64,000 nt of DNA from an uncultured Nitrososphaerota archaeon. GTDB taxonomy: Archaea; Thermoproteota; Nitrososphaeria; Nitrososphaerales; Gagatemarchaeaceae. A program made the translations under genes and the position numbers. The notes below the pieces were generated by a model that saw nothing but the letters and a program-made list of their open reading frames with translations, searched no databases and was not told the DNA's origin. The stretch is taken from contig CAVRAG010000008.1 of assembly GCA_963718895.1 (NCBI GenBank), positions 1,440,001-1,504,000 on the forward strand. The letters are read 5' to 3'. Below, piece after piece: positions 32,220-64,000 of the stretch. Each line of letters starts with the position of its first letter. The stretch's first letter is position 1.

Positions 32220-32243
32220 GGTTCATTGCGCCTCCGCCTGGGC
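32220..32243 (+). repeat. Cassette repeat copy (core)
   Basis: GGTTCATTGCGCCTCCGCCTGGGC. Confidence 0.88.
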
Positions 32244-32253
32244 GCGACGGGCA

Positions 32254-32976
32254 TCAGACGGCCACAATCAGAGCTATCCCGAGTGCCGTCAGAAGGCCGA
32301 AGACGAGCAGCGGCAGACCAAGCACGTATCCCAGCGTCCTGTTCCTGAGCAGAGAGACACCGGACAGAATGAAGGCTGGGAGATACAGTCCCATGTCCAG
32401 TACGTGAATCGGGTTGACCGGCAGCCCGGCCTGAGTCACGCTTGATGGCACTGTCCCGTTGAGGAGCGCGGGTATGTCTTCGCTCAACCAGAGGAAGTAG
32501 AAAGAGACGCCGAGGAGTACGAGAACCAGACCCAACGCAATCCTGGACCTGGTCCCAATCGTGGACCTCTCCCTCACCCTCTCAAAGTCGACGCGGACGA
32601 CCCCGCCCAGGAAGGTGTACACGAGCAGGCCCAGCGCCGCCACGTAGAGCAAGAAGAGGTCGTTGAAGGATGAGGCGAAGGCGTAGATGACGAAAGCGTA
32701 GATGAGGAAGAGCAGCACTCCAGCCCATACTTGAAAGCCTCTCACGGACCTTCTGACCGTGAGATACGCTGCAACGAGGAGGATGACGACGGCAACGACG
32801 TTCGCCACGTCCTGTGCCCGGGCCTGCATCGCCCAGTTGGACGTGTCTCTGGCATAGGTGCTGGCCACGAAAATCCCCGAGGCGCTGGACACCAAGGTCA
32901 GAATCGAAATCAGGACCGTGGACCACAGGTAGATCTCTGGCACGGCGAACCCATCGCTTTGAGCTTCGGCCTTCAT
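32254..32976 (-). CDS. Multi-pass membrane protein
   Basis: About 7 TM helices; QARAQD and HVLDMG motifs. Confidence 0.85.
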   Translation of the reverse strand: MKAEAQSDGFAVPEIYLWSTVLISILTLVSSASGIFVASTYARDTSNWAMQARAQDVANVVAVVILLVAAYLTVRRSVRGFQVWAGVLLFLIYAFVIYAFASSFNDLFLLYVAALGLLVYTFLGGVVRVDFERVRERSTIGTRSRIALGLVLVLLGVSFYFLWLSEDIPALLNGTVPSSVTQAGLPVNPIHVLDMGLYLPAFILSGVSLLRNRTLGYVLGLPLLVFGLLTALGIALIVAV

Positions 32977-33474
32977 CTCGGTAGGCGGCCGAGAGTGGTG
33001 TGCTATAAGTCCGGACAGGGTCATTCTTCCCCTCAGAGGCACTCGGGCCAAGATCGAAGATATTCCTTGGTTGACGATGGTGTTTATGGCTAAACATCGC
33101 TGTGTAAGCTCCAACCTGAGACCGGAAAGATGTCGAACCTTCAGAATGCATGGGAATCGCAATCCGGATTACTGCGAATCACCCGGACGCGCCCTGTTGG
33201 CGCGATCTTGGTAGGATGAAACCAGGCGCCCGGTCCAGCTGGGAACCGAGGCGACCAGATAGGCGGTCGACCTGAGCGTCCGATAGAATGGTCGGCCCCC
33301 GCTCACCACAGCATAGAGAAACGCTTCCGAAATAGGGGAGTATTGAGATCGCAAGCGCCGGAGCAGCTAGGATGCTGACGCCCACGTCGCTGGTTCTGAC
33401 CGACCTGGTCGTGATACTCGTCTTGGGCTCGGTTTGCTTCATTCCGTTCACGCCCTTTGTCCGGGGGTTCGGCG

Positions 33475-33501
33475 GGCATAGCGTTCATTGCGCCCTGCCG
33501 G
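33475..33501 (+). repeat. Cassette repeat copy (degenerate)
   Basis: GGCATAGCGTTCATTGCGCCCTGCCGG. Confidence 0.7.
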
Positions 33502-33564
33502 ATCGAGTCTGTGCTTCACGAACGACCGTGGAGCTCATTAACCTTCGACGTCCCTAGGACAGCC

Positions 33565-34344
33565 ATGCAGCAGAAGTACACGACCGACATGTACGAAGGG
33601 ATGCTGGCGGAGACCGTGACGATTCGCGGTCATGGAGACGAGACGATCAACGCTTACTTCGCGCGCCCTCTCGGCCCCGGGCCGTTCCCCGGCGTGGTGC
33701 TGATCCACCACGCGCCAGGATGGGATGAGTTGTACAGGGAATTCACACGTAGGTTCGCCCACCGTGGGTATCTTGCAATCTCTCCGAACATCTACTTCAG
33801 GGTGGGGCACGGCTCCCCCGAAGATGTGGCCGCGATGGTCCGCTCGGCCGGAGGGCTGCCGGACGACCAGGTCGTCGGGGACGCGGTGGGCGCTGCGGCC
33901 TATCTCAGGTCCCTGCCCCAGAGCAACGGGAAGGTCGGAGGGTTCGGGACCTGCTCTGGTGGACGGCACGTGTACCTGGTTGCCTGCAGGACGAAGGCAT
34001 TTGACGCAATCGTGGACTGCTGGGGCGGCAGAGTAGTGATGACACCACAGGAACTCAATCCCAAGATGCCGGTCGCGCCGATTGTGTACACCAAGGATTT
34101 GGCCTGCCCCGTCCTCGGACTCTTCGGGAAAGACGACCAGTCACCCAGCCCTGAGCAGGTGGCGAAACAGGAGGAGGAGCTGAAGAAGTACGGGAAGTCC
34201 TATGAGTTCCACATGTACGATGGGGCGGGTCACGGCTTCTTCTACTATGACAGGGCAGCCTACAGGCAGGAGCAAGCCGTCGACGGGTGGAAGAAGGTCT
34301 TCGCGTTCTTCGAGAAGAACCTCGGGGCGGCGGGCTCGCGTTAG
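33565..34344 (+). CDS. Dienelactone hydrolase family protein
   Basis: GTCSGG nucleophile, DDQSP, AGHGFF. Confidence 0.93.
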   Translation: MQQKYTTDMYEGMLAETVTIRGHGDETINAYFARPLGPGPFPGVVLIHHAPGWDELYREFTRRFAHRGYLAISPNIYFRVGHGSPEDVAAMVRSAGGLPDDQVVGDAVGAAAYLRSLPQSNGKVGGFGTCSGGRHVYLVACRTKAFDAIVDCWGGRVVMTPQELNPKMPVAPIVYTKDLACPVLGLFGKDDQSPSPEQVAKQEEELKKYGKSYEFHMYDGAGHGFFYYDRAAYRQEQAVDGWKKVFAFFEKNLGAAGSR

Positions 34345-34358
34345 GAGGGCGAGAGACC

Positions 34359-34649
34359 GTGTGTACAGGCAAAGTCGAGACGGCACAGGCATCGGGCAGC
34401 GGCAAGGGGACAGAGGGCTGGTTCAAGCTTGAGAAACTCAGCGTAACCTACGACTGCTCGTATCATACGTCCATGGCGCAAGCCATCAATGTTGAACTGT
34501 TCAGCGAGACTGAGGGACCCTCTGCACGGGTTGCCGTAGAGTTGGCCCCGACTTCGGCGATGGAGCTGGTCCGCGCCATCCTTGCTTCGCTTGCCAAGGC
34601 CGGTCTCGACCCCGGAGAGGTCGCCCTGGGGGCCACTGCTACCCCGTGA
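34359..34649 (+). CDS. DUF6295-like protein
   Basis: GTG start; GSGKGTEGWF...GPSARVAVEL. Confidence 0.75.
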   Translation: MCTGKVETAQASGSGKGTEGWFKLEKLSVTYDCSYHTSMAQAINVELFSETEGPSARVAVELAPTSAMELVRAILASLAKAGLDPGEVALGATATP

Positions 34650-34685
34650 GAGCGCAGCACGAGGTTCTGGGATGTGTTCTGAGCC

Positions 34686-34726
34686 GATTGCACATCCGCC
34701 GGTCCACTTCATCCACATGATTAGCT
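34686..34726 (+). repeat. Cassette repeat copy (right arm kept)
   Basis: GATTGCACATCCGCCGGTCCACTTCATCCACATGATTAGCT. Confidence 0.8.
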
Positions 34727-34801
34727 AACGGAGAGCGTTCACCGACGCGGTGCGATAGGTGAATCGGCATGACCATGATTTTACGCCTGCTGCCTCCGCT
34801 G

Positions 34802-35647
34802 CTAGTCGACGTTGAAGTACCAGAATACCGCGCCGTTGTTCGATGACCCGTGGGCATTACCCCCGCGGGCGGCGTGTACCGACACGATTACCGGGACCGC
34901 CGCGGTCCAGGAGTAGCCCACGGTGCCCTGCTGACCGCTGCAGGTTATCTGCACGACCGAGGACTGGGGGTTTGGCGCCTCGAAGGCGAGTGTGAGATTG
35001 TGAGATTGGGCGTCGACGGTCGCGATCACTGTGTAGGTGTAGTTCACGGCCTGACTCCCCTTGCAGAGTCCCGTTATCGAGTACCCGATGGTCCCCTCCC
35101 CGGTCACGACGGCAGACCCTTTGCTGACGTCGGCGATGAACTTACCAGAACCTTGTATTGTGGTGGTCGATCCTGAGGAACTCGAGTTCTGGGTGTAGCC
35201 GAAAGTGACGTTGTAGACGCCGAATTGGCTCGTGCTCGACGTACTCGTGGAAGTCGGGGTGCCGGAGGATGACGACTGGGTCGAACTCGGGACTGTGAAG
35301 GTCAAGCTGGAGCTCGAGGTGCTCGTTGCCAGCGACGAAGACGACTGGGTGGCTGTCTGGGATGAAGACTGGGATGAAATCTGCGACGAGCTCTGGCCGC
35401 TCGAGGACGAACTTCCCTGGCTGCTCGTTCCGCTCCCGCCCACCGAGACGCATGGCAGAGTTGTGGTGGTGGTCGTCGAGCCCAACGGGATTGTAAGGAC
35501 GGTCGAGCATGTCGTCGTCTGGGACGAGTTCTGGGAGGCCGTCACGAAGAGGAAGTACGCTGCTGCCGCAGCTGCGATCAGGAGGATTGCGATGAGGGCA
35601 ATCGCTATTGCCGTTATCCCTCTCCTGCCCTCGACTAACAAAATCAC
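34802..35647 (-). CDS. Ser/Thr-rich surface protein with class III (pilin-like) signal peptide
   Basis: RRG/ITAIAIALIAILLIAAAAAAYF followed by low-complexity linker. Confidence 0.75.
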   Translation of the reverse strand: MILLVEGRRGITAIAIALIAILLIAAAAAAYFLFVTASQNSSQTTTCSTVLTIPLGSTTTTTTLPCVSVGGSGTSSQGSSSSSGQSSSQISSQSSSQTATQSSSSLATSTSSSSLTFTVPSSTQSSSSGTPTSTSTSSTSQFGVYNVTFGYTQNSSSSGSTTTIQGSGKFIADVSKGSAVVTGEGTIGYSITGLCKGSQAVNYTYTVIATVDAQSHNLTLAFEAPNPQSSVVQITCSGQQGTVGYSWTAAVPVIVSVHAARGGNAHGSSNNGAVFWYFNVD

Positions 35648-35998
35648 GTAGTCGGCATATCCAGCCCACTCCAGGGAAATAAGTCTTTGATTCCCGGCGT
35701 CGGTTTTTCAGGGGTGAACGGAACCCCAGGAGGCCTCCAGGAGGACGAGATGACTGTCTCCTTCGCCTCGATGAGCGGGTCGGCCTTCTCGAGATGGACC
35801 AGGATTCGTCTCTCATTGCCAGCCGTGCACCCTCTCGGTCCCCATGATTCGATCATGATCTCTGCTGTAGCATGTATCTCAGCCTTCTACGCGGTCCATG
35901 GTTTTGGGAGGAGTCGGCGGTGCAATCGAATCGGTCTGAACCCGGGAGGTCCAGAATCTTCAGCCGATTGTCGTCCTAAGATGCCGAAGAAGACAAGT

Positions 35999-36033
35999 GC
36001 CATGTTAGGCTTCATCGCGCCTCCGTCGGGGAA
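35999..36033 (+). repeat. Cassette repeat copy (supplies vapC stop codon)
   Basis: GCCATGTTAGGCTTCATCGCGCCTCCGTCGGGGAA. Confidence 0.85.
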
Positions 36034-36446
36034 TGATTCGGTACGGGAATGTACACGGCTTCCCGTCCTAAGGCGTTCTTGATGGTCGAGTCTGTCGTGA
36101 TGAGGATCGGTGCGGTGGCTTCTCTCGTGGCGAGGGCGAAGCAATCTGCGAGCGAAAGTTCTCTCTTCTTGACCTTCCAAAGGGCCGCCTGTCTTGTGAT
36201 CTGCACCTCGGGCGCGACGACCTTAATCCTGGAGCTGCGAACCTGAAGATACCAGACCTCGGCCGTTTCGACCCCCTTCTTCTCGGCAGTCTTGTAGTAG
36301 AACTCGGCGAGATTCACCTCAGAGACGAAACCGCGTGCCTTTCCTGAAAGGACCCTATCAAAGTAGGGCTTCACAGATGTCGCTCCAGCATAGTAAAGGG
36401 AAAGCGCCCCCGCGTCCAGCGCGTAGCTACGCGCGCTCAGACTCAA
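36012..36446 (-). CDS. vapC: VapC PIN-domain toxin
   Basis: YALDAG, NLAEFYY, SLADCF, LITTD; TTG start overlaps antitoxin. Confidence 0.9.
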   Translation of the reverse strand: MSLSARSYALDAGALSLYYAGATSVKPYFDRVLSGKARGFVSEVNLAEFYYKTAEKKGVETAEVWYLQVRSSRIKVVAPEVQITRQAALWKVKKRELSLADCFALATREATAPILITTDSTIKNALGREAVYIPVPNHSPTEAR

Positions 36447-36660
36447 CTTCCTTTCTCCGATCCCTCGATATTTCGAGCGCAACCTCCAGCATCTCGTCTC
36501 CTCCTGCCCCAAAACTCTCTTCCATCGAAAGAGAGGGCTCGAGAAGAATTCGTCCTCCTTCATCTCTGATTATCACGGCGCGGCCGATCTTGAACTTCCT
36601 TCTGAGATACGCGGGGATGACCACCTGTCCCTTGGAAGACACGGGAACGACCTTTTCCAT
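36427..36660 (-). CDS. AbrB/MazE-type antitoxin
   Basis: VSSKGQVVIPAYLR. Confidence 0.92.
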   Translation of the reverse strand: MEKVVPVSSKGQVVIPAYLRRKFKIGRAVIIRDEGGRILLEPSLSMEESFGAGGDEMLEVALEISRDRRKEVESERA

Positions 36661-36691
36661 GAAATCCGAGAAAGTAGGGCTTGTTTAAGTG

Positions 36692-36738
36692 TTTTACTTC
36701 CGTAGAGTTTTACTTCTAGAGCGATTTTACTTCCAGAG
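36692..36738. promoter_or_regulatory. Three direct repeats upstream of the AbrB-VapC operon (putative operator)
   Basis: TTTTACTTC(N1-3)AGAG at 36692, 36708 and 36725. Confidence 0.55.
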
Positions 36739-36749
36739 TCCGGTTCGAG

Positions 36750-36765
36750 AGGGTTCATTGCGCCT
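36750..36765 (+). repeat. Cassette repeat copy (core; supplies stop of Zn-ribbon gene)
   Basis: AGGGTTCATTGCGCCT. Confidence 0.75.
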
Positions 36766-37273
36766 GATGATCAGCTAAATTCTGAACTAACTCCCTGGAG
36801 AGCAAACATGTCTGCTCGAGCGTCAAACTCGATATGCTCTTGTCCAAGTCGGGAGACCCCTTCACAGCTGTCTGAAGTTCGAATCGGTCTCCCCCTGTTA
36901 TCACGCTCCAAGAGCTTTCTGGGTTCGAAATTCGTCCATACATGTTTGCGAGGGCGATGAACCTGTTTCTCACCGCACGCGAGTAGGTTTCGTTCTCCAT
37001 CAGCGCCAGGAGTCCGATGCCTGTCTGAGTTGATTCGCAGAGATACTTGAGAGCGGCAATCACGGCAAGGGGCTTCTCTCCCCTGAGGCCGAAACGTGCC
37101 TGCGACGACAGCATCTCGATGAAACGTCTGACATTATCTTCTGCAGCAGCAGGATCCATCCTGAGATCATTCGGACCTGCGCCCTGAACCCGTATCGTCG
37201 TGTTGCATCTGGGGCAGATGAGTTGGGCAGAATAAGCTTTCATTCGCGAGCCGCAGGACGGGCAGAAGTTCAA
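36755..37273 (-). CDS. Zn-ribbon hypothetical protein
   Basis: FCPSCG...ICPRC N-terminus. Confidence 0.7.
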   Translation of the reverse strand: MNFCPSCGSRMKAYSAQLICPRCNTTIRVQGAGPNDLRMDPAAAEDNVRRFIEMLSSQARFGLRGEKPLAVIAALKYLCESTQTGIGLLALMENETYSRAVRNRFIALANMYGRISNPESSWSVITGGDRFELQTAVKGSPDLDKSISSLTLEQTCLLSRELVQNLADHQAQ

Positions 37274-37381
37274 GGGCTTGAATCACTGTCTCCTGCCGTC
37301 CATAAATGATTTTTCTACATGCGCGCGAGACTCAGGGCCTCTAGCCATTTCTTGCTCTTGCACCTCCATAGAAGGTGTTGT

Positions 37382-37438
37382 GCCCTGCCAGGGTGTTCGT
37401 TGCGCCTCAGCCGCGACTCTTCATCAACGCGGGTTGGA
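37382..37438 (+). repeat. Cassette repeat copy (degenerate, full length)
   Basis: GGGTGTTCGTTGCGCCTCAGCCGCGACTCTTCATCAACGCGGGTTGG. Confidence 0.7.
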
Positions 37439-37443
37439 GATGG

Positions 37444-37863
37444 TCAGGCTCCGAGCCACACCGTTTCGGGAAGGGCCTTGAAATGCTCGTCACCCGTGAC
37501 GACTCTCGCCTTGTTCCTCTTTGCCGATGCAAGGACGATTCCATCAAAAAGACTGGGTTTTCTCAGGCCTGAAGAGGAAGCCCTCCTGTCGAGCTTGACG
37601 GTGGCCTTGGCCGCCTCTAGGGCTAGGTCGGCATCGATGCAAACGATCTCTGAAGTCTCGAGTATTGTGGCCAGCCGCTTCCGGACGGTCGACTCGGCTG
37701 CACCTTCGCGAACATACTTCCTCGCCACCTCGGCAAGGACGGTGCCAGGCGTCAGCACATTTTCGGCATCTTCGATGACTCTCTTGGCCCTCTGCCCTGT
37801 CTCACTGCCCAGGAAGACCTCTATCCAGGCATAGGCGTCAACTACGATCTTCGTCACGATCAT
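37444..37863 (-). CDS. vapC: VapC PIN-domain toxin
   Basis: VVDAYAWIE, VLAEV, SLFDG, VTGDEHF. Confidence 0.93.
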   Translation of the reverse strand: MIVTKIVVDAYAWIEVFLGSETGQRAKRVIEDAENVLTPGTVLAEVARKYVREGAAESTVRKRLATILETSEIVCIDADLALEAAKATVKLDRRASSSGLRKPSLFDGIVLASAKRNKARVVTGDEHFKALPETVWLGA

Positions 37864-38044
37864 CCTCTGTGAAGGGAGTCACCTTTCCGCTGTCCGCGCC
37901 GAACGCCTCCTCGAGGAGCGCCTTGCGGTGCCGCACGACCAGCATTCGTATGGTCTCCTCCAGGGTTCTGGCGTGTATACCCTTCTGCAGCGCTGCCAGC
38001 TCGCGAGCTGTGTCCTTAGAGACTTTTACGGTGGTCGCATCCAT
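37838..38044 (-). CDS. VapB-type (RHH-like) antitoxin
   Basis: TTVKVSKDT; overlaps vapC start. Confidence 0.85.
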   Translation of the reverse strand: MDATTVKVSKDTARELAALQKGIHARTLEETIRMLVVRHRKALLEEAFGADSGKVTPFTEDDRDEDRS

Positions 38045-38177
38045 GCTGAGTATACAGTATACTGGAATATTAAAGCATCCCTGGCTCAAGCGCGTAGGGA
38101 TTCACATAGCGTGTTCGGCGGACTTCCTGAGCAAATCCGTATTACATTTATATACATCTTGGCGTCATACAAATCCA

Positions 38178-38435
38178 ATGCCGGTGGTGACGGTTCGCGT
38201 ACCCGAGGCGCACAAGCGGAAGATGGACGAGCTAAGAGAAGTCAACTGGAGCGAGGTGATCCGGAGAGCGATAGAGGCGAAGATCGAGGAGGAAGAGACG
38301 TGGCACCGTATCGACGCCGCCAGGCTGAGGAAGGCAGGGACCTCGACCGACGAATTGAGGCGGAAGGTCGAAGGGTGGGATAGCCTCTCAGAGATAAGGA
38401 AGTGGCGCAGGTCTCATGGTGACAGTGGTAGCTGA
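38178..38435 (+). CDS. VapB-type (RHH/CopG) antitoxin
   Basis: MPVVTVRVPE...VNWSEVIRRAIE. Confidence 0.88.
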   Translation: MPVVTVRVPEAHKRKMDELREVNWSEVIRRAIEAKIEEEETWHRIDAARLRKAGTSTDELRRKVEGWDSLSEIRKWRRSHGDSGS

Positions 38436-38877
38436 CGCCTCGGTCATAGTGAAGTGGTTCGTCGAAGAAGACCACTCGGAGACCTCATTGCGGATGAGAG
38501 ACGACTATGTCGCCCAGAGGACCACGATCATCGTTCCCGCCGTCGCTCAGTTCGAGGTGCTGAACGCCCTTCGCTACTCTGGAGGTTTTGGTACGGATGA
38601 CCTGCTCGAAGTGGCCCGGACGCTCGACGGCTATCAGTTCATGGAGGTCATGCTGCACGGCGACTATTCGGGGAAGGCCGTCAAGATTGCCATGGACCTG
38701 GGCATAACGGTGTACGATGCATCCTACCTTGCGCTGGGAGAGGTACGCGGAATCGATGTGTTCACCGCCGACGAGGAACTCCTCAAAAAGGCCCGGAAGA
38801 AGCTAGCTTTCGTGCGGCATGTGAAAGATTACACCTTTCCTAAAACAGACGGCGAAGAGAACAGCACATCCCCATAG
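38416..38877 (+). CDS. vapC: VapC PIN-domain toxin
   Basis: VADASVIVKWF, EVLNAL, TVYDASY, FTADE. Confidence 0.93.
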   Translation: MVTVVADASVIVKWFVEEDHSETSLRMRDDYVAQRTTIIVPAVAQFEVLNALRYSGGFGTDDLLEVARTLDGYQFMEVMLHGDYSGKAVKIAMDLGITVYDASYLALGEVRGIDVFTADEELLKKARKKLAFVRHVKDYTFPKTDGEENSTSP

Positions 38878-38900
38878 AGTCGTCAGGATGATTTAATCCC

Positions 38901-38945
38901 TGGGGTTTATTGCGCCTCCGCCGGGAATCTCATCCAGCGGTTAGT
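38901..38945 (+). repeat. Cassette repeat copy
   Basis: TGGGGTTTATTGCGCCTCCGCCGGGAATCTCATCCAGCGGTTAGT. Confidence 0.85.
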
Positions 38946-39080
38946 GAGAGCGATACAAGTCGGTCTGACCGTATTCAGGTTGCGAACGGCGGACTACAGG
39001 AATCTCCGGCCCGAGCGGGGAAGCTCGGGTTCAGCTCGTCGGCGCTTCAACTCGCTCACTCGCCAATTGGGCTACCAGCG

Positions 39081-39563
39081 TCATTCTTGCCGTCTTTTGC
39101 GGGCGAACGCTCGAAGCATCGGGATGTCTTCCTGGAAGGCCTTCGCCAGCGTCTCCCTCAGCTTATCCGCGACCGCCTTCGGGGCACGCACGTAGACGTC
39201 GATTCCGGTCTTGTTCCCTTTGGGGGTGTAGAGGAAGACCATCTTCAAGCCTGCATAGGCTCCCTCGAACTCCTCGCTGATGCGGGCCAAGGGAGGAATG
39301 GTCGTGATCCGTGCTTTCATCTTCATCCATCGCCCTCCCCTCACCACTTCGCAGGTCGCCTCGTCGGTTATTTCGTTCACTTCCTTCCACTTCATGTTTC
39401 GCAGACTCCCGCGGTGGGCCCGAGGGTGGAACTCGTTGTCGTTCATGATGAAATCCCAGACGACGTCGATCGGGGCATCGTATACGCTTCCTTTGTCCTC
39501 GAAGTATACGAAGTCCGCGGAGTCCCCAGCCTTTGTGGAACGGGTAGGCATGGTTGGCATCAT
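39081..39563 (-). CDS. SRPBCC-like hypothetical protein
   Basis: YDAPIDVVWDF motif. Confidence 0.65.
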   Translation of the reverse strand: MMPTMPTRSTKAGDSADFVYFEDKGSVYDAPIDVVWDFIMNDNEFHPRAHRGSLRNMKWKEVNEITDEATCEVVRGGRWMKMKARITTIPPLARISEEFEGAYAGLKMVFLYTPKGNKTGIDVYVRAPKAVADKLRETLAKAFQEDIPMLRAFARKRRQE

Positions 39564-39612
39564 AATCGTGTACGACAAATAAAGGGTGTGACAGATTGGT
39601 CGGCAATCAGTT

Positions 39613-39668
39613 GCCGTGCATAGGGTTCGTTGTGTCTCCGCCGGGCCATTTCATCCACATGTTGGGCT
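39613..39668 (+). repeat. Cassette repeat copy (full length)
   Basis: GCCGTGCATAGGGTTCGTTGTGTCTCCGCCGGGCCATTTCATCCACATGTTGGGCT. Confidence 0.95.
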
Positions 39669-39694
39669 CAGTCAGTGGACTTGAAATGTCGTCT

Positions 39695-39958
39695 TCACGT
39701 CCGGTAGACGCGGTCATGGTGTTCATAGTCCTCGAGGACTATTGTCTTCCTCGCCTCGTCGATCGAAAAGAGTAAGACATAGCTGCCGATGTGGACCCTC
39801 CTCAGTCCAGCGAGCGGGAAGCGGAGCGGCTTGTACGCGTGTGGATCTTCGGCTATCTCCTGAACCTTCTTCGCGACCGCTTCCATCTGCCTAGAGTCTT
39901 TCTTGGTCAGCTTCCTGAACGCCTTATCGAGATGCTCCCTGATCTCGATGTCGTACAT
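39695..39958 (-). CDS. relE: RelE/ParE (YafQ-like) toxin
   Basis: YKPLRFPLAGLRRVHIGSYVLLF...HHDRVY. Confidence 0.9.
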   Translation of the reverse strand: MYDIEIREHLDKAFRKLTKKDSRQMEAVAKKVQEIAEDPHAYKPLRFPLAGLRRVHIGSYVLLFSIDEARKTIVLEDYEHHDRVYRT

Positions 39959-56008: not shown

Positions 56009-56023
56009 CAAAATGACTTCGGA

Positions 56024-57085: not shown

Positions 57086-57150
57086 GGCTTCTCAATGAAC
57101 GTCCCCTCCATATTAGGAGTGAATCAACCGACTTGTCTCCGTTCCCGTCA

Positions 57151-57183
57151 GTCCTGCAGGGTTCATTGCGCCTCCGCCGGGGA
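57151..57183 (+). repeat. Cassette repeat copy
   Basis: GTCCTGCAGGGTTCATTGCGCCTCCGCCGGGGA. Confidence 0.92.
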
Positions 57184-57201
57184 TGTCAAGTCCTGATCAG
57201 G

Positions 57202-57589
57202 TCATTTAATCATGATTGCTTCGTCCAGACCACGGAAGTGCTCGTCTCCGGTTATGACCTTCATCCCTCTAACTCTAGCCGTTGCCAGGACTACGGAGTC
57301 CACCAATCCCCAACCCCTTACCCGCGACCTTCGTTCAGCGCTGATCTTTCCGGCTATCTCCGCCGTCTCCTCGTCGAGCGGCGCGAGAGCAGAGGTCGCC
57401 TTCAGAAACTTGAGCCTTTCCCTGAAGTCAAGATTCTCTCTGGTGTACTTGTCGGTGAACTCGGCTATGACGATGGTGGGAGTGAAGGCTTCGCCGCTTT
57501 CGATGTAGGTCTTCGCATTCTCTCCCGCTGGGCTTCCGGCGAAGTATTCAATCCAAGAGAATGTATCCAGTATGTAGATAGCCGGTCAC
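57202..57589 (-). CDS. vapC: VapC PIN-domain toxin absent from ORF track (no in-frame canonical start)
   Basis: Manual translation IYILDTFSWIEYF...VIAEF...GLVDSVV...ITGDEHF; GTG at 57589 is 1 nt out of frame. Confidence 0.85.
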
Positions 57590-57786
57590 CTCTGGAATTC
57601 CTCATGCTCATGCTTTGAAAGATGGAGCGGTTTGGACCTGTCGACGCCGAACATGCTCTTGGGTAAGCGCTCTGCCTTCTCTATGAGAGCGTTAATCGTC
57701 TGGTCGAGGCTTTGCGTCCCCTCTTCTTTCATGATCCTCCTCAATCTATCGCGTGTTGACTCCTTGACCGCTATGGTCGTGGTCAT
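57586..57786 (-). CDS. VapB-type antitoxin
   Basis: MTTTIAVKESTRDRL...SMFGVD. Confidence 0.85.
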   Translation of the reverse strand: MTTTIAVKESTRDRLRRIMKEEGTQSLDQTINALIEKAERLPKSMFGVDRSKPLHLSKHEHEEFQR

Positions 57787-57832
57787 ATAGATATGCAATA
57801 TAGACTATAATATATATGCACCACGCTTTCTC

Positions 57833-57888
57833 GCCATGTGTAGGGTTCATTGCGCCTCCGCCGGGGCATTTCATCTGCGCGTTCGGCT
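57833..57888 (+). repeat. Cassette repeat copy (full length)
   Basis: GCCATGTGTAGGGTTCATTGCGCCTCCGCCGGGGCATTTCATCTGCGCGTTCGGCT. Confidence 0.96.
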
Positions 57889-57937
57889 CAGGCGCTGGTG
57901 AGGGAATCCGGCCCACAATTCGGCCATCATTCGCCGC

Positions 57938-58354
57938 TTACTCTTTGTCGAGCAGTTCCTTCCATCCGATGACATCATGCCCAGTGATTGAGCCCGCGAG
58001 CTTTCTATCCTCAGTGGCGAGTGGAAGGTCTAGAGACTCTGCGGCAACGACATAGCAGGCATCGTAGTACGCAATCCCCTTCTTCACGGCCAAGTCCATT
58101 GCTTTGTCATGGTCCAGATCCTCTCCTCGTACTATGGAGGTCCGAGATAGGAGTGCGACGAGAGCATTGTGAGTCGCGTGCGCGTCCTTCTCAGTGATCA
58201 GCTTCAGGAGTCGGGTCTGCTTCCAGATCCCGTTTCCTGCCTCATAGGTCGCCAGGTCCAGCGTCGTAAGGTCTGTGGCCAGGTCTGCCAGCTTTGTAGC
58301 ATTGGCGTGTTTCACGAGGAGAAGAAGCGCGCTTGCGTCCACAAGAGCCTTCAT
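57938..58354 (-). CDS. vapC: VapC PIN-domain toxin
   Basis: LVDASA, YEAGN, YYDACY, LATEDR. Confidence 0.93.
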   Translation of the reverse strand: MKALVDASALLLLVKHANATKLADLATDLTTLDLATYEAGNGIWKQTRLLKLITEKDAHATHNALVALLSRTSIVRGEDLDHDKAMDLAVKKGIAYYDACYVVAAESLDLPLATEDRKLAGSITGHDVIGWKELLDKE

Positions 58355-58575
58355 CGGTCTTCCCTTGTTTCCCTGACTGCCTTGATGATTTCATTGTCGG
58401 ACACTTTTGATAGAGCCTTCTTCGCCCGTCCCAATGCTGAAATCAGTTCTCTCCTTTCTCTCTTCTGTACTTCGTCCCTGAGCGCCGACCGGACTAGCTC
58501 GCTGATGTTCACGTTGTAGGCCTTGGCCTTCTTCTTGAGCTCTTCATCGACCCTCACAACCACAGTTCCTGTCAT
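58351..58575 (-). CDS. CcdA/VapB-type RHH antitoxin
   Basis: VRVDEELKKKAKAYNVNISELVR; ATGA overlap. Confidence 0.9.
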   Translation of the reverse strand: MTGTVVVRVDEELKKKAKAYNVNISELVRSALRDEVQKRERRELISALGRAKKALSKVSDNEIIKAVRETREDR

Positions 58576-58624
58576 ACAGATTATGTATATACGTCCTTGT
58601 ATTTAACCATGCTACCGTCAACCG

Positions 58625-58641
58625 AGGTTCATCGCGCATCC
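58625..58641 (+). repeat. Cassette repeat copy (degenerate core)
   Basis: AGGTTCATCGCGCATCC. Confidence 0.5.
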
Positions 58642-58821
58642 TCATGTTAGAAACACATGCATGATGACAGTTGAAGGAGAATGATACAATCATGGTCGCG
58701 GGTGAACGCGTTCTTTCGATGTAGCCATCTTTCCGAGGTCTGGACATCTCCTGGGTGATAGTCCGACAACCAATTGCCACTATTGTTTACAAAGGAATGA
58801 GGCAGACCGGCTTGGCGGCGT

Positions 58822-59679
58822 GTGATCATGACCCTGGCAAAAGTCAAAGCGGTTTCCGACCTGGTCAAGATCGAGCTTCCTGCCGCGGCGGGGATTTGCG
58901 TCGTAGCAGGTGAGGTGATGGCCCTGGGTCGCCTTCCCTCGGCCACCACCGTCATCCTGGGCTTTCTGCTTGGCTTCTTCGTCTCTGCTGCGGCCATGAT
59001 CTCGAACGACTATTTCGACCGCGAAGTGGACCGGGTCAACCATCCCGAGAGGCCGTTGCCCTCGGGTCGCATCACGACCGGCGAGCTGCTGATCATCGAG
59101 GCCTGTTTCTCTCTGGCGGGTCTTGCAATCGCGGCCTTCCTGGGCGTGGTTGTTTTGGTCGGAGCCTCAGCTCTCTGGATCATCGGATTCCTGTACAACT
59201 GGAGATACAAAGAGTCCGGCCTAGTCGGGAACATGATGGTCAGTGCTTCTGTAGCTTCCACCTTCGTGGTCGGTGGCATAGCCTCGGCCGGGCCCGTAAA
59301 CGGCCTCGTGTGGACGTTCGGCACTCTGGCATTCATGTTCGATCTTGCAGAGGAGATAGCAGGGGGCGCAATGGATGTTGTCGGCGACGCGAAACGAAAC
59401 GTGAGGTCCCTGGGGAGGGTGCTCGGAAAGATCTGCGCGCTTCGGGTCTCTGTGATCCTTTACACTCTCGTGATAGTAGGGACCTTCGTCCCGGTCGTGA
59501 GGGGATGGTTGGGGGCCCCTTATCTCGCGATCGCAGCGGTCACCGACCTCCTGTTGATCTACTTCTCGGCCCGGCTCTACAGAAGCAGGACTCCCGAGGA
59601 GGGAAGACGTGAGATTCGCCACTTGTACCTGACGGCTGCAGGACTTGTAGCCGCCTTCTTACTCGGTAGCGCCTTCTAG
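58822..59679 (+). CDS. UbiA-family prenyltransferase (DGGGP synthase-like)
   Basis: NDYFDREVDRVNHPERPLPSG; second motif DVVGD. Confidence 0.9.
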   Translation: MIMTLAKVKAVSDLVKIELPAAAGICVVAGEVMALGRLPSATTVILGFLLGFFVSAAAMISNDYFDREVDRVNHPERPLPSGRITTGELLIIEACFSLAGLAIAAFLGVVVLVGASALWIIGFLYNWRYKESGLVGNMMVSASVASTFVVGGIASAGPVNGLVWTFGTLAFMFDLAEEIAGGAMDVVGDAKRNVRSLGRVLGKICALRVSVILYTLVIVGTFVPVVRGWLGAPYLAIAAVTDLLLIYFSARLYRSRTPEEGRREIRHLYLTAAGLVAAFLLGSAF

Positions 59680-59698
59680 GCCGGACGAAGATGCTGGA

Positions 59699-59728
59699 GC
59701 CATGCTAGGGTTCATTGCACCTCTGCCC
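59699..59728 (+). repeat. Cassette repeat copy
   Basis: GCCATGCTAGGGTTCATTGCACCTCTGCCC. Confidence 0.88.
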
Positions 59729-59761
59729 GAATCACTGAGAAGGAGGTAGCCGAAGTCACGT

Positions 59762-61045
59762 TCATGCCAGTGGCATGTTAGGCGACCGGGACGAAGATGT
59801 GTGACGCCGGACCAGAAGATAGGATGCCGCCAAGAGAACGGTGAAGAAGGCGGCCACCAGGAACTGGTAGGGGAACACCGGCACTCCCCCTCCCCCGCCT
59901 GTCGAGCTTGTTGCGGAGGTCTGTGCCGTCGTAGAACTCGAGCCCGTGATGCTGTTGGCCGTGGAGGGAGAAGACGAAACGACCGTGGTGGTCGACGTGG
60001 AGCTCAGTGTGGTGGATGTGGTCGAGCTACCCGAGGTCGTTGACGACAGGGCGGCGTCGGGTACCACGGAGATGGTGGAACCGCCACTGTCGGCCACGAA
60101 CACCTCGCCCTTTCCCGAGTCGTAGGCTACGTCGTAGGGTGAGGTCCCTACCGTGACGTTCGCGACGATCTTGTCACTGCTGTCGGACACCGCTGAAATC
60201 GTGTTTGACATGTAGTTCCCTGCGACTACATCGCCCTTGGCAGAGTCGTAGACTACTTCTCCGACGCTGCCTCCTGCAGGTAAGATCACGGTCGCGACGA
60301 CCGCGTTGCTTGCGTCGGATATCACCGAGAACCCGTCGCCAAAATTGTCCGCGAACACTTCATCCTTTGCGGGGTCGTAGACCAGGCCCGTGGGGGAACC
60401 ATAGAGGACCACGTTGGCGACAACTTTGTTCGTGGAGTCGGAGACCACGGAGACATTGTCAGCTCCGTTATCCGCAACGAACACCTCGCCCTTGGCGGAA
60501 TCATAAGCCAGGCCCTCGGGGGAGCTTCCGGAGGGAAGGGTTACAGTCGCGACGACCGTGTTTGTGCCGTCGGAGATGACGGAGAGGGTGTCATCGAGAC
60601 CATTCGCCACGAACACTTCGCCCTTTGCAGAGTCATATGCCAAGCCGTCGGGAGTACCTCCAACATTCACGTTCGCCACGACCTTGTTCGTGGAGTCTGA
60701 TATCACGGAAACGGCGGCGTTGCCGCTGTCGGCGACGAAGATCTCGCCCTTTCCTGAGTCGTAGACGGCGCCCAGGGGAGAGCTTCCAGCGGGTAGGCTG
60801 AAGTTCGCGACGACGATGTCGGTGGTGTCGGATATCACAGAGCCCCTTGGGCCCAGATCCGCAACGAATATCTCGCCCTTGCCTGAGTCGTAGGCCAAGC
60901 TCTGGGGGGTACCCGTTACGGTTATGGTCGTCACAGCGGCCCCGGCCCTGGCGAAAGGAACGGCGACGGCCGAACCTAGGACCAAGAGGACCAGGAGAAT
61001 CATAGCAGACGTCATGCGGATGAACCCGTGACGCGAAGCCGACAC
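59762..61045 (-). CDS. YVTN/YncE beta-propeller surface protein with PEF-CTERM-like tail
   Basis: Seven YDSxKGEVFVA repeats; VPVFP-TM-RRH. Confidence 0.92.
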   Translation of the reverse strand: MSASRHGFIRMTSAMILLVLLVLGSAVAVPFARAGAAVTTITVTGTPQSLAYDSGKGEIFVADLGPRGSVISDTTDIVVANFSLPAGSSPLGAVYDSGKGEIFVADSGNAAVSVISDSTNKVVANVNVGGTPDGLAYDSAKGEVFVANGLDDTLSVISDGTNTVVATVTLPSGSSPEGLAYDSAKGEVFVADNGADNVSVVSDSTNKVVANVVLYGSPTGLVYDPAKDEVFADNFGDGFSVISDASNAVVATVILPAGGSVGEVVYDSAKGDVVAGNYMSNTISAVSDSSDKIVANVTVGTSPYDVAYDSGKGEVFVADSGGSTISVVPDAALSSTTSGSSTTSTTLSSTSTTTVVSSSPSTANSITGSSSTTAQTSATSSTGGGGGVPVFPYQFLVAAFFTVLLAASYLLVRRHTSSSRSPNMPLA

Positions 61046-61120
61046 GCTCTCGACTACGTTGCCGGTAGGCGCTCGATTTAAGACTTCGGAACTGCAATTC
61101 CAGAAGAATAATCCTCTTCG

Positions 61121-61170
61121 CGCATGGGTTCGTTGCGCTTCCGACGGTCCTTTCATCCACATGTTGGCTA
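61121..61170 (+). repeat. Cassette repeat copy
   Basis: CGCATGGGTTCGTTGCGCTTCCGACGGTCCTTTCATCCACATGTTGGCTA. Confidence 0.9.
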
Positions 61171-61173
61171 CGG

Positions 61174-61617
61174 CTACGGCTTCAATTTGTCAAGGTCCAC
61201 CGCAGGAAGCCCTAACCGACGATATGCGCCCTCGCTGGAAAGCAAGGTGATCCCAAGCCTCTTGGAGGCCGCCGCGTGCAGCGAGTCGAAGAAGGTCAGG
61301 CCTGGTTCGTCCTGACGCAGCCTCTCTGCCACTATCACGTCGCCGATGTCCACGGGTAACGCGTCGTCGATGCCATATTCTGCCAGGAGTGCGGCCATCA
61401 ACGTGAACGTCTCTTCGATATCCTTGCTCTGCACGCCCCTGGAATACAGCACGGTCCTCACCTCGAGCACGGCCGAGGAGAGAGGGGTTATCCTCAGTCT
61501 TCCGTCCCTGTGCATCTCGAGCGCGGTGATGACACTGGAGTGCCTCGCGTCCGACTTTCTCAGCCCGAAGAGAAAATCAGACTCTACGATCACTTGCTGT
61601 CGGGATTCAGAAGCCAT
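61174..61617 (-). CDS. vapC: VapC PIN-domain toxin
   Basis: IVESDFL, AVLEV, TFFDSLHAA, LLSSE. Confidence 0.88.
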   Translation of the reverse strand: MASESRQQVIVESDFLFGLRKSDARHSSVITALEMHRDGRLRITPLSSAVLEVRTVLYSRGVQSKDIEETFTLMAALLAEYGIDDALPVDIGDVIVAERLRQDEPGLTFFDSLHAAASKRLGITLLSSEGAYRRLGLPAVDLDKLKP

Positions 61618-61835
61618 TCTTCAGCCCTTCTTCGCGTGCTCCTGTCGAACGGAAAGTCACCCATGGTTCTGTCCAGCCTCTCAGCGGGGTCTGCGGGAAC
61701 CGGCTTCATCAGGATGTCTTTGCCATACGGAACTAGATAGAACTTTTGGCCCGTGACCACCTTGAAGGCAGCCCTCACTCCTTTGGGGATTGTGATCCTG
61801 TATCGCTCATCCACCTCTGCCAGCTCTATACCCAT
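61590..61835 (-). CDS. AbrB/MazE-type antitoxin
   Basis: VDERYRITIPKGVR. Confidence 0.9.
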   Translation of the reverse strand: MGIELAEVDERYRITIPKGVRAAFKVVTGQKFYLVPYGKDILMKPVPADPAERLDRTMGDFPFDRSTRRRAEEWLLNPDSK

Positions 61836-61869
61836 GATTTGGGATTATGACCCGTATATTTAATTATTT

Positions 61870-61925
61870 GCCCGTAAATGGTTCATTGCGTCTCCGCCTG
61901 GGAGAGTATCATCCACACGCTGGCC
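61870..61925 (+). repeat. Cassette repeat copy
   Basis: GCCCGTAAATGGTTCATTGCGTCTCCGCCTGGGAGAGTATCATCCACACGCTGGCC. Confidence 0.88.
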
Positions 61926-62288
61926 ATGGTCTTTGGCTTACTGGCGTCACGGAAAGAAGTTCGCCGCGGTCACGGCAAGCCCGCCAGGTCTTAGCCCTGG
62001 TGCCTTGGCCGCCCCACAATCCGCGACCGCTGATTTTGGACGACGCCGGTACCGTTGCACTTTGGGCAAGGCGCGCTCTGGCCTGTGCTTACTTTGATTG
62101 TGCCAGTTCCTTTACAGTTCGGACAGGGTCCCGTTCTTACTGACATCGCGCGTTTGTGGCGTTCGGTCTCTTCTTACGTGTTCTGCCGTCGGCACCCGGC
62201 GAGTTGACAGGGAGGCTGCTAGCGACAGTCGAGTTACCAAAACCGATTATTGACTCGGTGGAGTTTACATTCCATTGAAGGAACTTGG

Positions 62289-62344
62289 GTCATGCATGTG
62301 GGTTCTTTGCGCCTGCGCCGGGGCATTTCATCCATGTGTTGGGG
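62289..62344 (+). repeat. Cassette repeat copy (full length)
   Basis: GTCATGCATGTGGGTTCTTTGCGCCTGCGCCGGGGCATTTCATCCATGTGTTGGGG. Confidence 0.93.
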
Positions 62345-62565
62345 TAAGTTAGACCCGGGACTACCAAGCCACCCTCTTCTTCTGATATTGCGAGAATACC
62401 CTATCCCCGAATAGCTATCTCGAGGTAGGCTGTTCCGGTTTGCAGCCACGGAAGATTTTTGATGCCTGAACCATTTGTGCCGGCAACTCATAGGTTCGCT
62501 TTCAATCTGTTCATCACGCGGCTTGCGATTATCAATCAAGGTGCCCATTTGTAATTGTTCTTCCG

Positions 62566-62594
62566 ATGCGTGGGGTTCATTGTCACATTCCGGG
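62566..62594 (+). repeat. Cassette repeat copy (degenerate)
   Basis: ATGCGTGGGGTTCATTGTCACATTCCGGG. Confidence 0.55.
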
Positions 62595-62614
62595 AAAAGA
62601 ATCTAGGTGCGAGT

Positions 62615-63863
62615 TCACTGGCTGGCCGGTACGAGCTCGTAGACTCCCACCGTCGGTGTTATGTTCTTCAGCTTGCGAGTCCCGAGATAACGCATCGAGG
62701 ACTTCAGCTTGTTCGATATCTGCTCGTAGACTTGCTTCGAGACGCAGACACCACCAGGTCTCGCGTATGCCTGCAATCTCGAAGCGATGTTGACGGCGTC
62801 ACCGAAGATGTCTCCGTCCTTGTGAATCACATCGCCAACGTGAACCCCTATCCTGAGACTGTTGCCTCTTCTGATGCGCTGCATCCGGCTCTGGACTGCG
62901 ATGGCACACTCCGCGGCTGCGAGCACGCTCCCGAACTCGACCATGAATCCGTCGCCTGTCCCCTTAATCACGCTCCCTTCGTATCTGGGGATGATGGACA
63001 GGATGGCTCCCTCCTGTGTGTCAAGCAGTTTCATCGCTTCCCGCTCGTCCTTCCTCATCAACCCGCTGTAGCCGACCATGTCAGTCACCATCACGGCCGC
63101 CAGATGTCTCGTTCCTTGTGACCCTCTCCGCGCGCCTACCACCACCTCCCCCCGCGGCCGGAGGCTGAGCGTCCTCCACCCCGAATCGACCGGTCCTCCA
63201 TGGAACGCCCTCGCCCGGACATTGTGTTCCAGTCTGCCTGCCTTCTCCTTGGTCACCATGTCGAAGATGCCGTCGTACAGAGCCTCATTCTTCCTGTAGA
63301 ACGCTTCCGAGGCAACGCCCTTCACGAAACCATTGATGGTAATCAGCTCGCGCGCCCTCGCCCATGGTATGAAGATAGTCCGCCAGCCGTTGAACATCGT
63401 CTCCTCGTCGTTGAATTGGAGGAGAAGCGAGGTGTTGTCGTCTATGTGGAGCCACCGCATGTCCCGCTCTTCGAAACCTTCGGAGATTTGCTTCTTGATC
63501 ACTTTCCCCCACTCTCTCAGGTCGGGAGCTTTCATGGCAAGGAAGCCGACCTTCCCGGCTGGCGCCTTCATCGATCTCTTCGGTCGTTGGGGTATAACTG
63601 TCTATGAGCCTGAGCATGCCCCTCTTCGTCTCTTTATCGACGGAAACCCCCAATTCTTCGAGGGCCTCCTTGACATCGACTATGTTCCGGTGGAAGGAGT
63701 GGTACTCGGTCTTCAGACCACGCTGCACGGCACGAGCGGCAACGGTTACCGAAGCCTCATACCAAGGGGAGTCTGGCTCGAACTCTACCAGATAGTTCCC
63801 TCCCACGCGTAGTCCGTCCGGCACCATGGCCTCAAAGAACGGGACCACGACCCTGACGGGCAT
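62615..63863 (-). pseudogene. KaiC/RecA-like (degenerate ATPase) domain fused to class III cyclase; frameshift near 63580
   Basis: The 63863 ORF (VPDGL..NYLVEF..RLIDSY) continues in the 63571 frame (IDD, YDGIFDM, then LAAVMVTDMVGY, GDAVNIASR). Confidence 0.75.
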
Positions 63864-63970
63864 TACTTGGAATTCACCGACTGGAACTATAAGCGTTTAC
63901 CCCTTTGTCTGGACGGCTCTTGCTTCGCATATATGAAAACTGGGGGCTTGTGATTCAGAAGGGACCCTGA

Positions 63971-64000
63971 GCCATGCTAGGGTTCATTGCGCCTCCGCCG
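63971..64000 (+). repeat. Cassette repeat copy (truncated by window edge)
   Basis: GCCATGCTAGGGTTCATTGCGCCTCCGCCG. Confidence 0.95.

Follow-up and report, generated by a model that had tools for sequence, protein, structure and literature searches.

The 64,000-nt window analysed here lies on contig C8 (CAVRAG010000008.1) of an uncultured archaeon of the Gagatemarchaeaceae (genome G000). From window position 1753 to 64 kb past the right edge of the window, the contig carries a 126-kb array of short, co-oriented repeats that is anchored at the 3′ end of the 23S rRNA gene and divides the DNA into small gene cassettes. We consider it rather probable that this array stores cassettes in the manner of an integron and that they dock at the core of the 23S trailer, the part that encodes the bulge-helix-bulge. 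Our verdict is that the system is integron-like and uses a site of a new kind; we infer its mechanism from the observations below.

The identity of the repeat follows from its last copy. The large-subunit (LSU) rRNA gene at C8:1568000–1572001 (minus strand) is the only 23S gene of the genome, and the small-subunit (SSU) rRNA gene lies at C8:1572203–1573702 on the same strand (archaeal SSU model, 1447 bits). The last array copy, C8:1567963–1568017, extends across the 3′ terminus of the 23S gene, and the Rfam LSU alignment stops at ...CCCAACGUGUGGAUGAA, within this copy. Read in the rRNA sense (minus strand), a repeat begins with the terminal 20–80 nt of 23S rRNA and continues with AUG CCCCGGCGG AG GCGC AAU GAACCCUAyACAUGGC; some copies only also carry a small hairpin, GGCAnUGCC, and then a U-run. 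Each repeat is thus a copy of the end of the 23S rRNA plus its 3′ trailer, and that trailer is the 3′ strand of the 23S processing stem, comprising inner helix, bulge-helix-bulge and outer helix. The sole minus-strand match on C8 sits directly 5′ of the 23S gene, where the spacer reads GCCAUGCAUAGGGUUC GCGC AAG CAU CCGCCGGGG and includes a sequence complementary to the trailer. Cofolding of the two strands (−65.8 kcal/mol) gives an outer and an inner helix, between which GCGC can pair with GCGC and the 3-nt bulges AAG and AAU lie on opposite strands. We take this layout to be that of a bulge-helix-bulge, a region that the minimum-energy fold draws slightly differently. One case of a covarying outer-helix pair was found, GCCGUG/CACGGC in G009 versus GCCAUG/CAUGGC in G000, and the segment CCCCGGCGGAGGCGCAAUGAACCCU is identical in all five readable trailers. 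As described in parts of PMC7038931, bulge-helix-bulge motifs in archaeal 16S and 23S stems are presumed substrates of the splicing endonuclease and the RtcB ligase, and in Haloferax an intact motif is required for rRNA formation.

The repeat was also considered as a shared 5′ end of genes, with GGAGG-N5-ATG AAC CCT on the minus strand; this was rejected because the frame reaches at least 100 codons in only 8 of 87 copies and is mostly shorter than 40. The 23S gene itself is 4,002 nt long against a model of 2,987 positions, and those of relatives (G010, G017 and G021 were noted) measure 3.7–6.2 kb. Because their BLAST blocks are interrupted at different places, these genes probably contain several rRNA introns or insertions that differ by species.

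Conservation among the copies is centred on a short core. All 87 copies were anchored on TTGCGCCTCC, and 86 were compared with the copy adjacent to the 23S gene. Identity to this anchor copy is 0.79–0.99 over TTGCGCCTC and 0.79–0.88 at GGTTCA on its left, and it sinks to background within about 25 nt leftward and about 45 nt rightward of the core. The peak of conservation is the core itself, about 20 bp long (GGTTCATTGCGCCTCCG), which in the rRNA sense is the central helix plus the 3′ bulge of the bulge-helix-bulge; inspection by eye showed no dyad symmetry in it. Homology to the anchor copy is lost directly left of (A)TTGCGCC in about eight copies, and in others right of GCGCCTC or right of CCGCCGGGG; the breakpoints on either side of the core range over model positions 26–56. 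Together, the conservation peak and the cassette boundaries would place the exchange within about 20 bp. The outer-helix arm is the better conserved of the two arms: it can pair with the leader at 12 or more of 16 positions in 34 of 87 copies, compared with 0.28% of random 16-mers, in an ungapped count that misses shifts of 1 nt. The hairpin and U-run are kept in 10 of 87 copies versus 6 of 2,000 controls.

The repeat was found by a repeat search of the window, as a sequence of about 56 nt with many co-oriented copies. An nhmmer profile built from seven window copies and iterated once on the genome, with hits accepted at E ≤ 1, gave 111 matches genome-wide. The 87 of the main array are all on the plus strand and span C8:1441753–1568017 (array positions are counted from C8:1440001). 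Besides them there are five copies at C8:1189526–1222553, 16 at C4:263–301 kb in mixed orientation, one each on C6 and C10, and two weak matches elsewhere on C4; the rRNA spacer copy is the only one of 93 matches on C8 that lies on the minus strand. Dispersed repeats of the repetitive extragenic palindrome or miniature inverted-repeat transposable element kind do not fit this distribution, in which 87 of 111 matches form one array in one orientation and most others fall in two clusters. The 19-nt core, allowing up to two mismatches, has 62 forward and 4 reverse matches in the genome versus none for a reversed-pattern control, which excludes a chance origin. The 86 units between copies have a median length of 825 bp (range 285–18,773 bp) and typically hold one or two genes in 0.3–3 kb, so that, as in integrons, co-oriented cassettes less than 4 kb apart are each bounded by a site. 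The array makes up about 4% of the genome, in the form of accessory and toxin–antitoxin genes. Just one inverted fragment was seen within the array: at array positions ~95027–95100, a portion of the 23S-end arm in inverted form (AGCCCAACGTGTGGAT) comes after a copy, on the strand of that copy.

A first-pass annotation, made from the letters of the window, had described much of this layout correctly. Its estimate of about 17 copies in the left half and about 33 in the right compares with 16 at or before 32 kb and 31 at 32–64 kb, 47 in all and every one on the plus strand (6 and 30 per half at E ≤ 0.01). Strong copies do lie right of 39 kb, where it had put nearly all intact ones: copies of at least 40 bits number 0 of 16 in the left half and 10 of 31 in the right, the earliest at 39613. 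The left-hand units, which it had called longer and multigenic, have a median of 1,463 bp and 2.3 genes per unit, versus 748 bp and 1.4 genes on the right, and the leftward bias of roughly 4:1 that it had given for the right half was measured at 3.2:1 (32 leftward and 10 rightward genes in 32220–64000; 96 and 51 over the whole array), with genes called by a home-made codon score.

The same arrangement recurs across the genus. In all eight other genomes with a located 23S gene (G001, G007, G009, G017, G021, G010, G012 and G018), a co-oriented array starts at the 23S 3′ end; insertions in the 23S gene of G007 create an apparent gap of 1.1 kb there, which is an artefact. Of 22 other genomes of the genus, 20 contain the core; it was present in one of two from other genera of the family and in none of 16 from other families of the order, and loci matching a 35-nt pattern come from Nitrososphaerota/Nitrososphaerales metagenome-assembled genomes and from Candidatus Gagatemarchaeum. 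We also collected 80 metagenome loci, which were chosen by the 22-nt core pattern itself and show layout, not frequency. Seventeen of them contain a 23S 3′ end, and in all 17 a copy begins 12–35 nt past the BLAST match, the query having ended 30 nt before the end of the rRNA; among loci with more than one copy, 45 of 48 are co-oriented, and two of the three exceptions look like the spacer copy. As at attachment (att) sites in stable RNA genes, the repeats reproduce the terminus of the RNA, here that of the 23S rRNA with its trailer, and the last copy overlaps the gene end. On metagenome contigs L129, L111 and L143 the 23S 3′ end is only about 78% identical and the trailer holds the exact 22-nt core, and at E ≤ 0.01 no further copy was found in the 4.6–8.4 kb of contig past the anchor copy; more distant relatives may possess the site but no dense array. 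The best four public sequencing runs were soil metagenomes of one study (5–7% of sampled words), and no RNA run was listed.

Comparison of cassettes within and between arrays indicates that they behave as independent mobile units. Four single units are duplicated within the array at 90–97% identity, core to core, with different neighbours for each copy; their homology ends at −16/+7, −6/+11, +8/+51 and −7/+27 from the cores. A fifth pair, 79% identical, has only the unit start in common (offset −17 at the left core). Among matches of at least 200 nt between this genome and G007, G009, G017 or G021, 8 of 31 end within 20 nt of the cores on both sides, in shuffled order, and the G010 array likewise shows core-bounded matches in shuffled order; one cassette lies 91 kb from the 23S gene in G000 and about 2 kb from it in G010. 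Judged from such alignments, units are duplicated, re-ordered and common to several species, with homology ending within the core.

Toxin–antitoxin families are prominent in the cargo, accounting for at least 14 of 45 proteins in 30–64 kb and at least 16 of 67 in 64–128 kb, and include PIN, ParE, HicAB, Fic, MazE/AbrB and DUF433/DUF5615. The remainder comprises small enzymes, methyltransferases, an ATP-binding cassette (ABC) pair, NHL-repeat proteins, cyclases and many proteins without a family; the distal 30 kb holds more ordinary metabolic genes. The longest unit, at array positions 100551–119324 (C8:1540551–1559324), extends for 18.8 kb without repeats. It contains open reading frames (ORFs) of 1,587, 828, 782 and 603 aa together with Double-GTPase-like and zinc-ribbon proteins, has the lowest G+C of the array (0.51–0.53) and possibly represents a defence or mobile island that entered the array. 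At array positions 81898–83014, the N-terminal and C-terminal domains of a zinc alcohol dehydrogenase are encoded, in that order, by two adjoining ORFs separated by 4 nt, probably as the result of a frameshift in this cassette gene.

The first-pass annotation had also predicted, from the gradient in repeat quality, that new units are added at the right end and that the primary site should lie past position 64000. A primary site beyond the window is borne out, given that the array ends 64 kb further on at the 23S 3′ end and trailer, C8:1568000. Right-end addition stood in part: the origin at that end, the degenerate distal copies, the G+C values and a genome-specific proximal region favour it, and the lack of an integrase there does not. 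The plot of identity against position that it had suggested gave a similarly divided answer. Copy score rises with position in the window (Spearman ρ = 0.64, P = 1.6 × 10−6) and over the whole array (ρ = 0.35, P = 0.001), but as a step, with no cline from 39 kb on, so that the pattern is one of a degenerate distal tail and not of a continuous gradient. A trend in repeat quality is also present in G007 and G017. Cargo genes mostly point away from the 23S origin. G+C changes from 0.596–0.604 in the distal part to 0.51–0.55 near the 23S gene (genome, 0.597), with ρ = −0.60 against position (P = 1.5 × 10−7), or −0.45 leaving out the large unit. Seven other arrays were compared, each as far as its fetched sequence reached; the 31 kb nearest the 23S gene have no match in them, and the other 97 kb have 30. 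In duplicate pairs, one member lies at 80–98 kb and its partner further out, as copying towards the origin would place them. These signals are compatible with addition at the anchor, although they are no proof of it, and we regard the polarity of array growth as partly supported.

A recombinase was sought in and around the array. The integrase that had been expected past the right edge was not found at or past the array end: matches to PF00589 occur only at C8:1339k, C8:1191–1193k and C4:99k, and C8:1440001–1568100 contains neither a PF00589 nor a P0001-like match (P0001 is described below). A tRNA had been suggested at the same place; ARAGORN found none in the window, in the array or in the next 20 kb, and a run that allowed for introns placed the closest one on that side at C8:1579323, some 11 kb beyond the array. 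The repeats are not attC-like, form no hairpin and are accompanied by no IntI above cut-off. In a survey of 23 genomes of the genus, which are 54–96% complete so that absence is not proven, the integron integrase model TIGR02249 exceeded its cut-off of 265 bits in none (best score, 124 bits; best in G000, 33.8 bits). Serine recombinases are not common to the array-bearing genomes, and Cas1 (PF01867) was found in one of five genomes, neither G000 nor G007 being that one.

The best candidate is the clade of P0001, a 461-aa ORF at C8:1190962–1192347 (minus strand) that encodes a tyrosine recombinase distantly like XerA (NF040815, 74.6 bits versus a cut-off of 220; PF00589, 34 bits); since the ORF as called runs into a tRNA gene, its first 30–45 residues are probably spurious. 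P0001 lies 1.4 kb from a trailer-like copy and adjoins tRNA-Trp(CCA) (C8:1192303–1192446), which has a 67-nt intron and was detected only with intron search on. Its close clade includes seven proteins in other genomes (271–334 bits). Counting P0001, six clade members have 2.5 kb or more of sequence downstream, and in every one of them a repeat in one fixed orientation lies 0.25–8.4 kb downstream; the other two, with less than 2.5 kb on that side, have no repeat there. Four more distant G000 paralogues have no repeat within the 8–20 kb fetched around each, and at least three of these, as well as the C8:1339k integrase, adjoin other tRNA genes. At the tRNA-Trp locus, repeats lie on the far side of the integrase in all four genomes with the integrase and in none of five without it. 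The P0001 clade, Xer-like tyrosine recombinases of about 430–460 aa beside secondary arrays, is a candidate for the enzyme. Conserved attP-like arms were sought beside the integrase-proximal repeats, where flanks are common to only two of six loci, and synteny around tRNA-Trp did not delimit an integrase-bearing element, the flanks being too variable. The 80 metagenome loci (328 kb) contain no P0001-like integrase. The sole PF00589 match of G007 was considered as an array enzyme and set aside. It scores 63.1 bits, the same as the G000 integrase at C8:1339140–1339640, to which it was likened by score alone; the latter adjoins tRNA-Leu, is accompanied by an ATPase gene and appears to belong to an ordinary integrated element.

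Several further observations concern the secondary clusters. The first two copies of the C8:1189526–1222553 cluster are direct repeats of about 120 nt, 26.7 kb apart, that enclose an integrase, tRNA-Trp, a PLD-like protein and an RNase H-like protein. Diverging integrase genes lie on either side of the tRNA-Trp(CCA) gene, one of the two being degenerate, and G007 and G010 have partial copies of the tRNA-Trp 3′ end a few kilobases downstream, which looks like a second integration hot spot. At G021:C3:292–340 kb, two arrays point outward from an 18.6-kb segment with a P0001-clade integrase and tRNA-Trp.

We propose that cassettes would move by recombination at the ~20-bp core, which would be a stable target because it encodes the bulge-helix-bulge needed for rRNA maturation. 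A cassette inserting beside the 23S gene would replace the distal half of the trailer; each cassette would therefore carry its own outer-helix strand, often with a terminator-like hairpin, so that rRNA processing is preserved, and the better conservation of the outer-helix arm would be explained by cassettes supplying the replacement strand. New cassettes would enter mostly at the 23S-proximal copy, in the role of attI, and older ones would shift towards the distal end, with loss of their repeats and amelioration of their G+C. The recombinase would act in trans, with the P0001 clade as the best candidate, and the abundant toxin–antitoxin cassettes probably stabilise the array. The full combination, an undescribed integron-analogous capture system of the Gagatemarchaeaceae with a trailer docking site, unstructured double-stranded copies, a replacement stem half, an Xer-like clade acting in trans and growth outward from the rRNA gene into arrays of super-integron size (up to 126 kb and 87 units), is a tentative proposal to which we give somewhat less than an even chance.

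Several observations weigh against the integron-like interpretation. The data do not demonstrate one fixed crossover point, and recombination over short homologies would give a similar picture. About eight copies are without an outer-helix arm, so that not every cassette could have served as a working trailer. Repeat quality shows no trend from 39 kb to the array end at 128 kb (ρ = −0.10, P = 0.41), and G009 and G021 show none over about 55 kb. The figures for gene direction and genes per unit depend on the home-made codon score, and cassette movement is known here from sequence comparison, neither a recombination event nor an excision product having been seen directly. The complete genome of G007 has a 62-kb array and no P0001-clade integrase at E ≤ 10−10. 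Finally, the candidate integrases adjoin tRNA-Trp in four genomes, and their link to the repeats could therefore be positional.

The lack of a recombinase conserved among array-bearing genomes would be expected if the array were a flexible island exchanging DNA across its 20–75-nt repeats by homologous recombination only, with neither a dedicated enzyme nor an entry point; the variable extent of homology on both sides of the core and the partial collinearity of cassettes between species agree with this. Such exchange leaves unexplained, however, how unrelated genes each gained a trailer copy. Moreover, many copies have only about 16–26 nt in common, which is short for the process, conservation is sharply centred on one core and not even over the repeat, and a preferred end of entry is suggested by the G+C cline and by the proximal 31 kb being specific to this genome. 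We regard homologous recombination alone as a serious but improbable account. Tandem accretion, in which full-size integrative elements with their integrases entered an att site in the 23S trailer and then decayed to one or two genes, seems more doubtful still. Tyrosine-recombinase mobile elements are known to form arrays by re-using one site (described in parts of PMC6563490), the trailer-like direct repeats of ~120 nt at C8:1189526 and 1216195 bound just such an integrase-bearing segment, and the proximal part of the array contains the repeat-free 18.8-kb unit and a HerA/TraG-like ATPase. Yet 86 units with a median of 825 bp contain no integrase remnant in 126 kb, and single units of 0.7–0.9 kb are conserved between species and duplicated as units.

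The remaining possibilities are very improbable in our estimation. The unit size, toxin–antitoxin-rich cargo, co-orientation and genus-specific repeat resemble those of sedentary chromosomal integrons. In a classical integron or cluster of attC sites lacking integrases (CALIN), attC sites are recombined as folded single strands by IntI, and the R″/R′ boxes of attC have the consensus RYYYAAC...GTTRRRY, the second of which is fitted by GTTGGGC in the repeat. The paired boxes, however, occur in only 2 of the 26 strongest copies (80-nt units), the fold z-scores of these copies average +0.16 on one strand and +0.42 on the other and never fall below −2, six DNA folds gave z-scores of −0.84 to +1.00, and the TIGR02249 survey stayed empty, all of which makes this the least credible of the accounts. 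A CRISPR-like or casposase-like insertion that duplicates a target repeat at each event would suit the polar look of the array and the intact repeat beside the anchor; a duplication of fixed length misfits the variable arm lengths and the presence of both arms in most copies, and the sparse occurrence of Cas1 gives it no support, leaving it with very little likelihood. Much the same weight falls to an origin at the RNA level, through cleavage by the splicing endonuclease at the bulge-helix-bulge, ligation by RtcB, reverse transcription and integration. The core does coincide with a strand of the bulge-helix-bulge, the roughly eight copies noted above lose homology at the edge of the 3-nt bulge, and the genome encodes group II intron reverse transcriptases. 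In five of those eight copies, however, the break follows the complete bulge (AAU|) and does not fall inside it, the array and its flanks contain no reverse transcriptase, and DNA-level recombination explains the pattern more simply.

Features of the window are collected below.

Table 1. Repeat copies and cassettes in the 64,000-nt window (window positions; cassettes are given core to core)
Feature	Position	Strand	Basis or remark
Window share (47 copies) of the 87-copy array; copies read in the rRNA sense on the minus strand	1753..64000	-	nhmmer
Distal tail: degenerate copies (10–34 bits), longer multigene units, G+C near the genome mean	1753..38941	-	
One-gene cassette: PIN-domain protein (36012–36563)	36015..36758	-	Pfam
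First full-length copy, 56.8 bits	39613..39668	-	
Full-length copy, 62.6 bits: 23S 3′-end-like arm, core and outer-helix arm	46207..46262	-	
Cassette: HicA toxin (52654–52881) and HicB antitoxin (52914–53144)	52582..53208	-	Pfam
Example of the conserved core, GGTTCGTTGCGCCTCCGCC on the plus strand	53202..53220	-	conservation over 86 copies
Cassette: 410-aa protein of no Pfam family (53884–55116)	53867..55274	-	
Cassette common to G007 (93.9% identity), at another rank there	57166..57850	-	homology ends −8/+13 from cores
Full-length copy, 53.6 bits	57833..57886	-	
Cassette: PIN toxin (57938–58354, −), CcdA/RHH (ribbon-helix-helix) antitoxin (58351–58575, −), UbiA prenyltransferase (58822–59679, +)	57850..59715	.	
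Copy crossing the window edge, ending at 64002; the array goes on	63971..64000	-	

The cargo of the distal tail includes a pyridoxal-phosphate (PLP) decarboxylase, DUF885, luciferase-like monooxygenases, arginase, MsrB, thermopsin and a major facilitator superfamily (MFS) transporter. The arm of the 62.6-bit copy is able to pair with the rRNA leader at 16 of 16 positions. The one-gene PIN cassette is duplicated at array positions 80941–81683 with 92.6% identity, homology stopping at −16 and +7 from the cores, and the HicAB cassette has a match of about 70% identity in the G021 array that runs from −10 of the left core to 26 nt before the right core. The stop codon of the gene for the 410-aa protein abuts a truncated repeat, and a paralogous cassette lies at array position 97328. 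An Rfam scan of the window gave no family at gathering score.

Other features of the sequence were noted in passing. Two NHL-repeat beta-propeller genes contain internal tandem repeats: that at 48245–49597 (+) has a period of 174 nt over 48441–48942, and that at 59762–61162 (−) has one of 126–132 nt over 60053–60913. A 144-nt match of 71% identity between 17826–17969 and 62708–62851 falls within ORFs 16329–18260 and 62618–63571, both of which match an adenylate/guanylate cyclase domain and are paralogues in distal and middle cassettes. Outside the array, two 584-aa group II intron proteins (reverse transcriptase, maturase and HNH) are encoded 2 kb apart at C8:1203643–1205397 and C8:1207319–1209073.

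Among known systems, sedentary chromosomal integrons and CALINs, with those reported from archaeal metagenome-assembled genomes among them (Ghaly et al. 2022, PMC9668308), are similar in many respects. They have long co-oriented arrays of mostly one-gene cassettes with one origin, a cargo of toxin–antitoxin and unknown-function genes, a lineage-homogeneous repeat, and cassettes that are shuffled and common to several species. By contrast, the repeat described here is an unstructured, double-strand-type sequence from the 23S trailer, with neither a hairpin attC nor an IntI, and the origin is the end of an rRNA gene, not intI–attI. Expression from a common promoter is also unlikely, because some cassettes start with a terminator-like hairpin. 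The main text of that paper, its supplementary tables aside, names no Nitrososphaeria or Thaumarchaeota. Islands of the tRNA type, as treated in parts of Krupovic et al. 2019 (PMC6563490) and Badel et al. 2021 (PMC8371274), also have direct repeats that copy the 3′ end of an RNA gene, an intact gene at one end and tyrosine recombinases as likely agents. Here, however, the target is the 23S trailer, there are 87 repeats instead of two or three, the units are cassette-sized and without integrases, and the core is a bulge-helix-bulge strand; the word rRNA does not occur in the main text of either of these papers on thaumarchaeal and archaeal integration. CRISPR arrays share the alternation of repeat and unit, a leader-like anchor and suggested polar growth, and differ in that the units here are genes of 0.3–3 kb, the repeats vary in extent and no Cas1 is associated with the arrays. 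In SAR11, hypervariable region 2 (HVR2) is a variable gene island between the 23S and 5S genes, with the rRNA genes as conserved flanks; to our knowledge, it has no internal repeat array that delimits cassettes. Our literature searches returned no description of an rRNA-anchored cassette array, and the genome paper of the genus (PMC10640624) contains none of the words repeat, cassette, integron, toxin or mobile.

If the integron-like interpretation is correct, these archaea would have a second, independent solution to the integron problem, the stockpiling and shuffling of single-gene cassettes at one site, that uses neither IntI nor folded attC sites; integron-finding tools would miss it. An rRNA processing stem could then serve as an integration target, as tRNA genes do, on condition that the mobile DNA brings a working replacement for the stem half that it displaces, and archaeal rRNA maturation should depend on the outer-helix arm that the first cassette provides. 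Such a system would be conserved across a genus of abundant acid-soil archaea.

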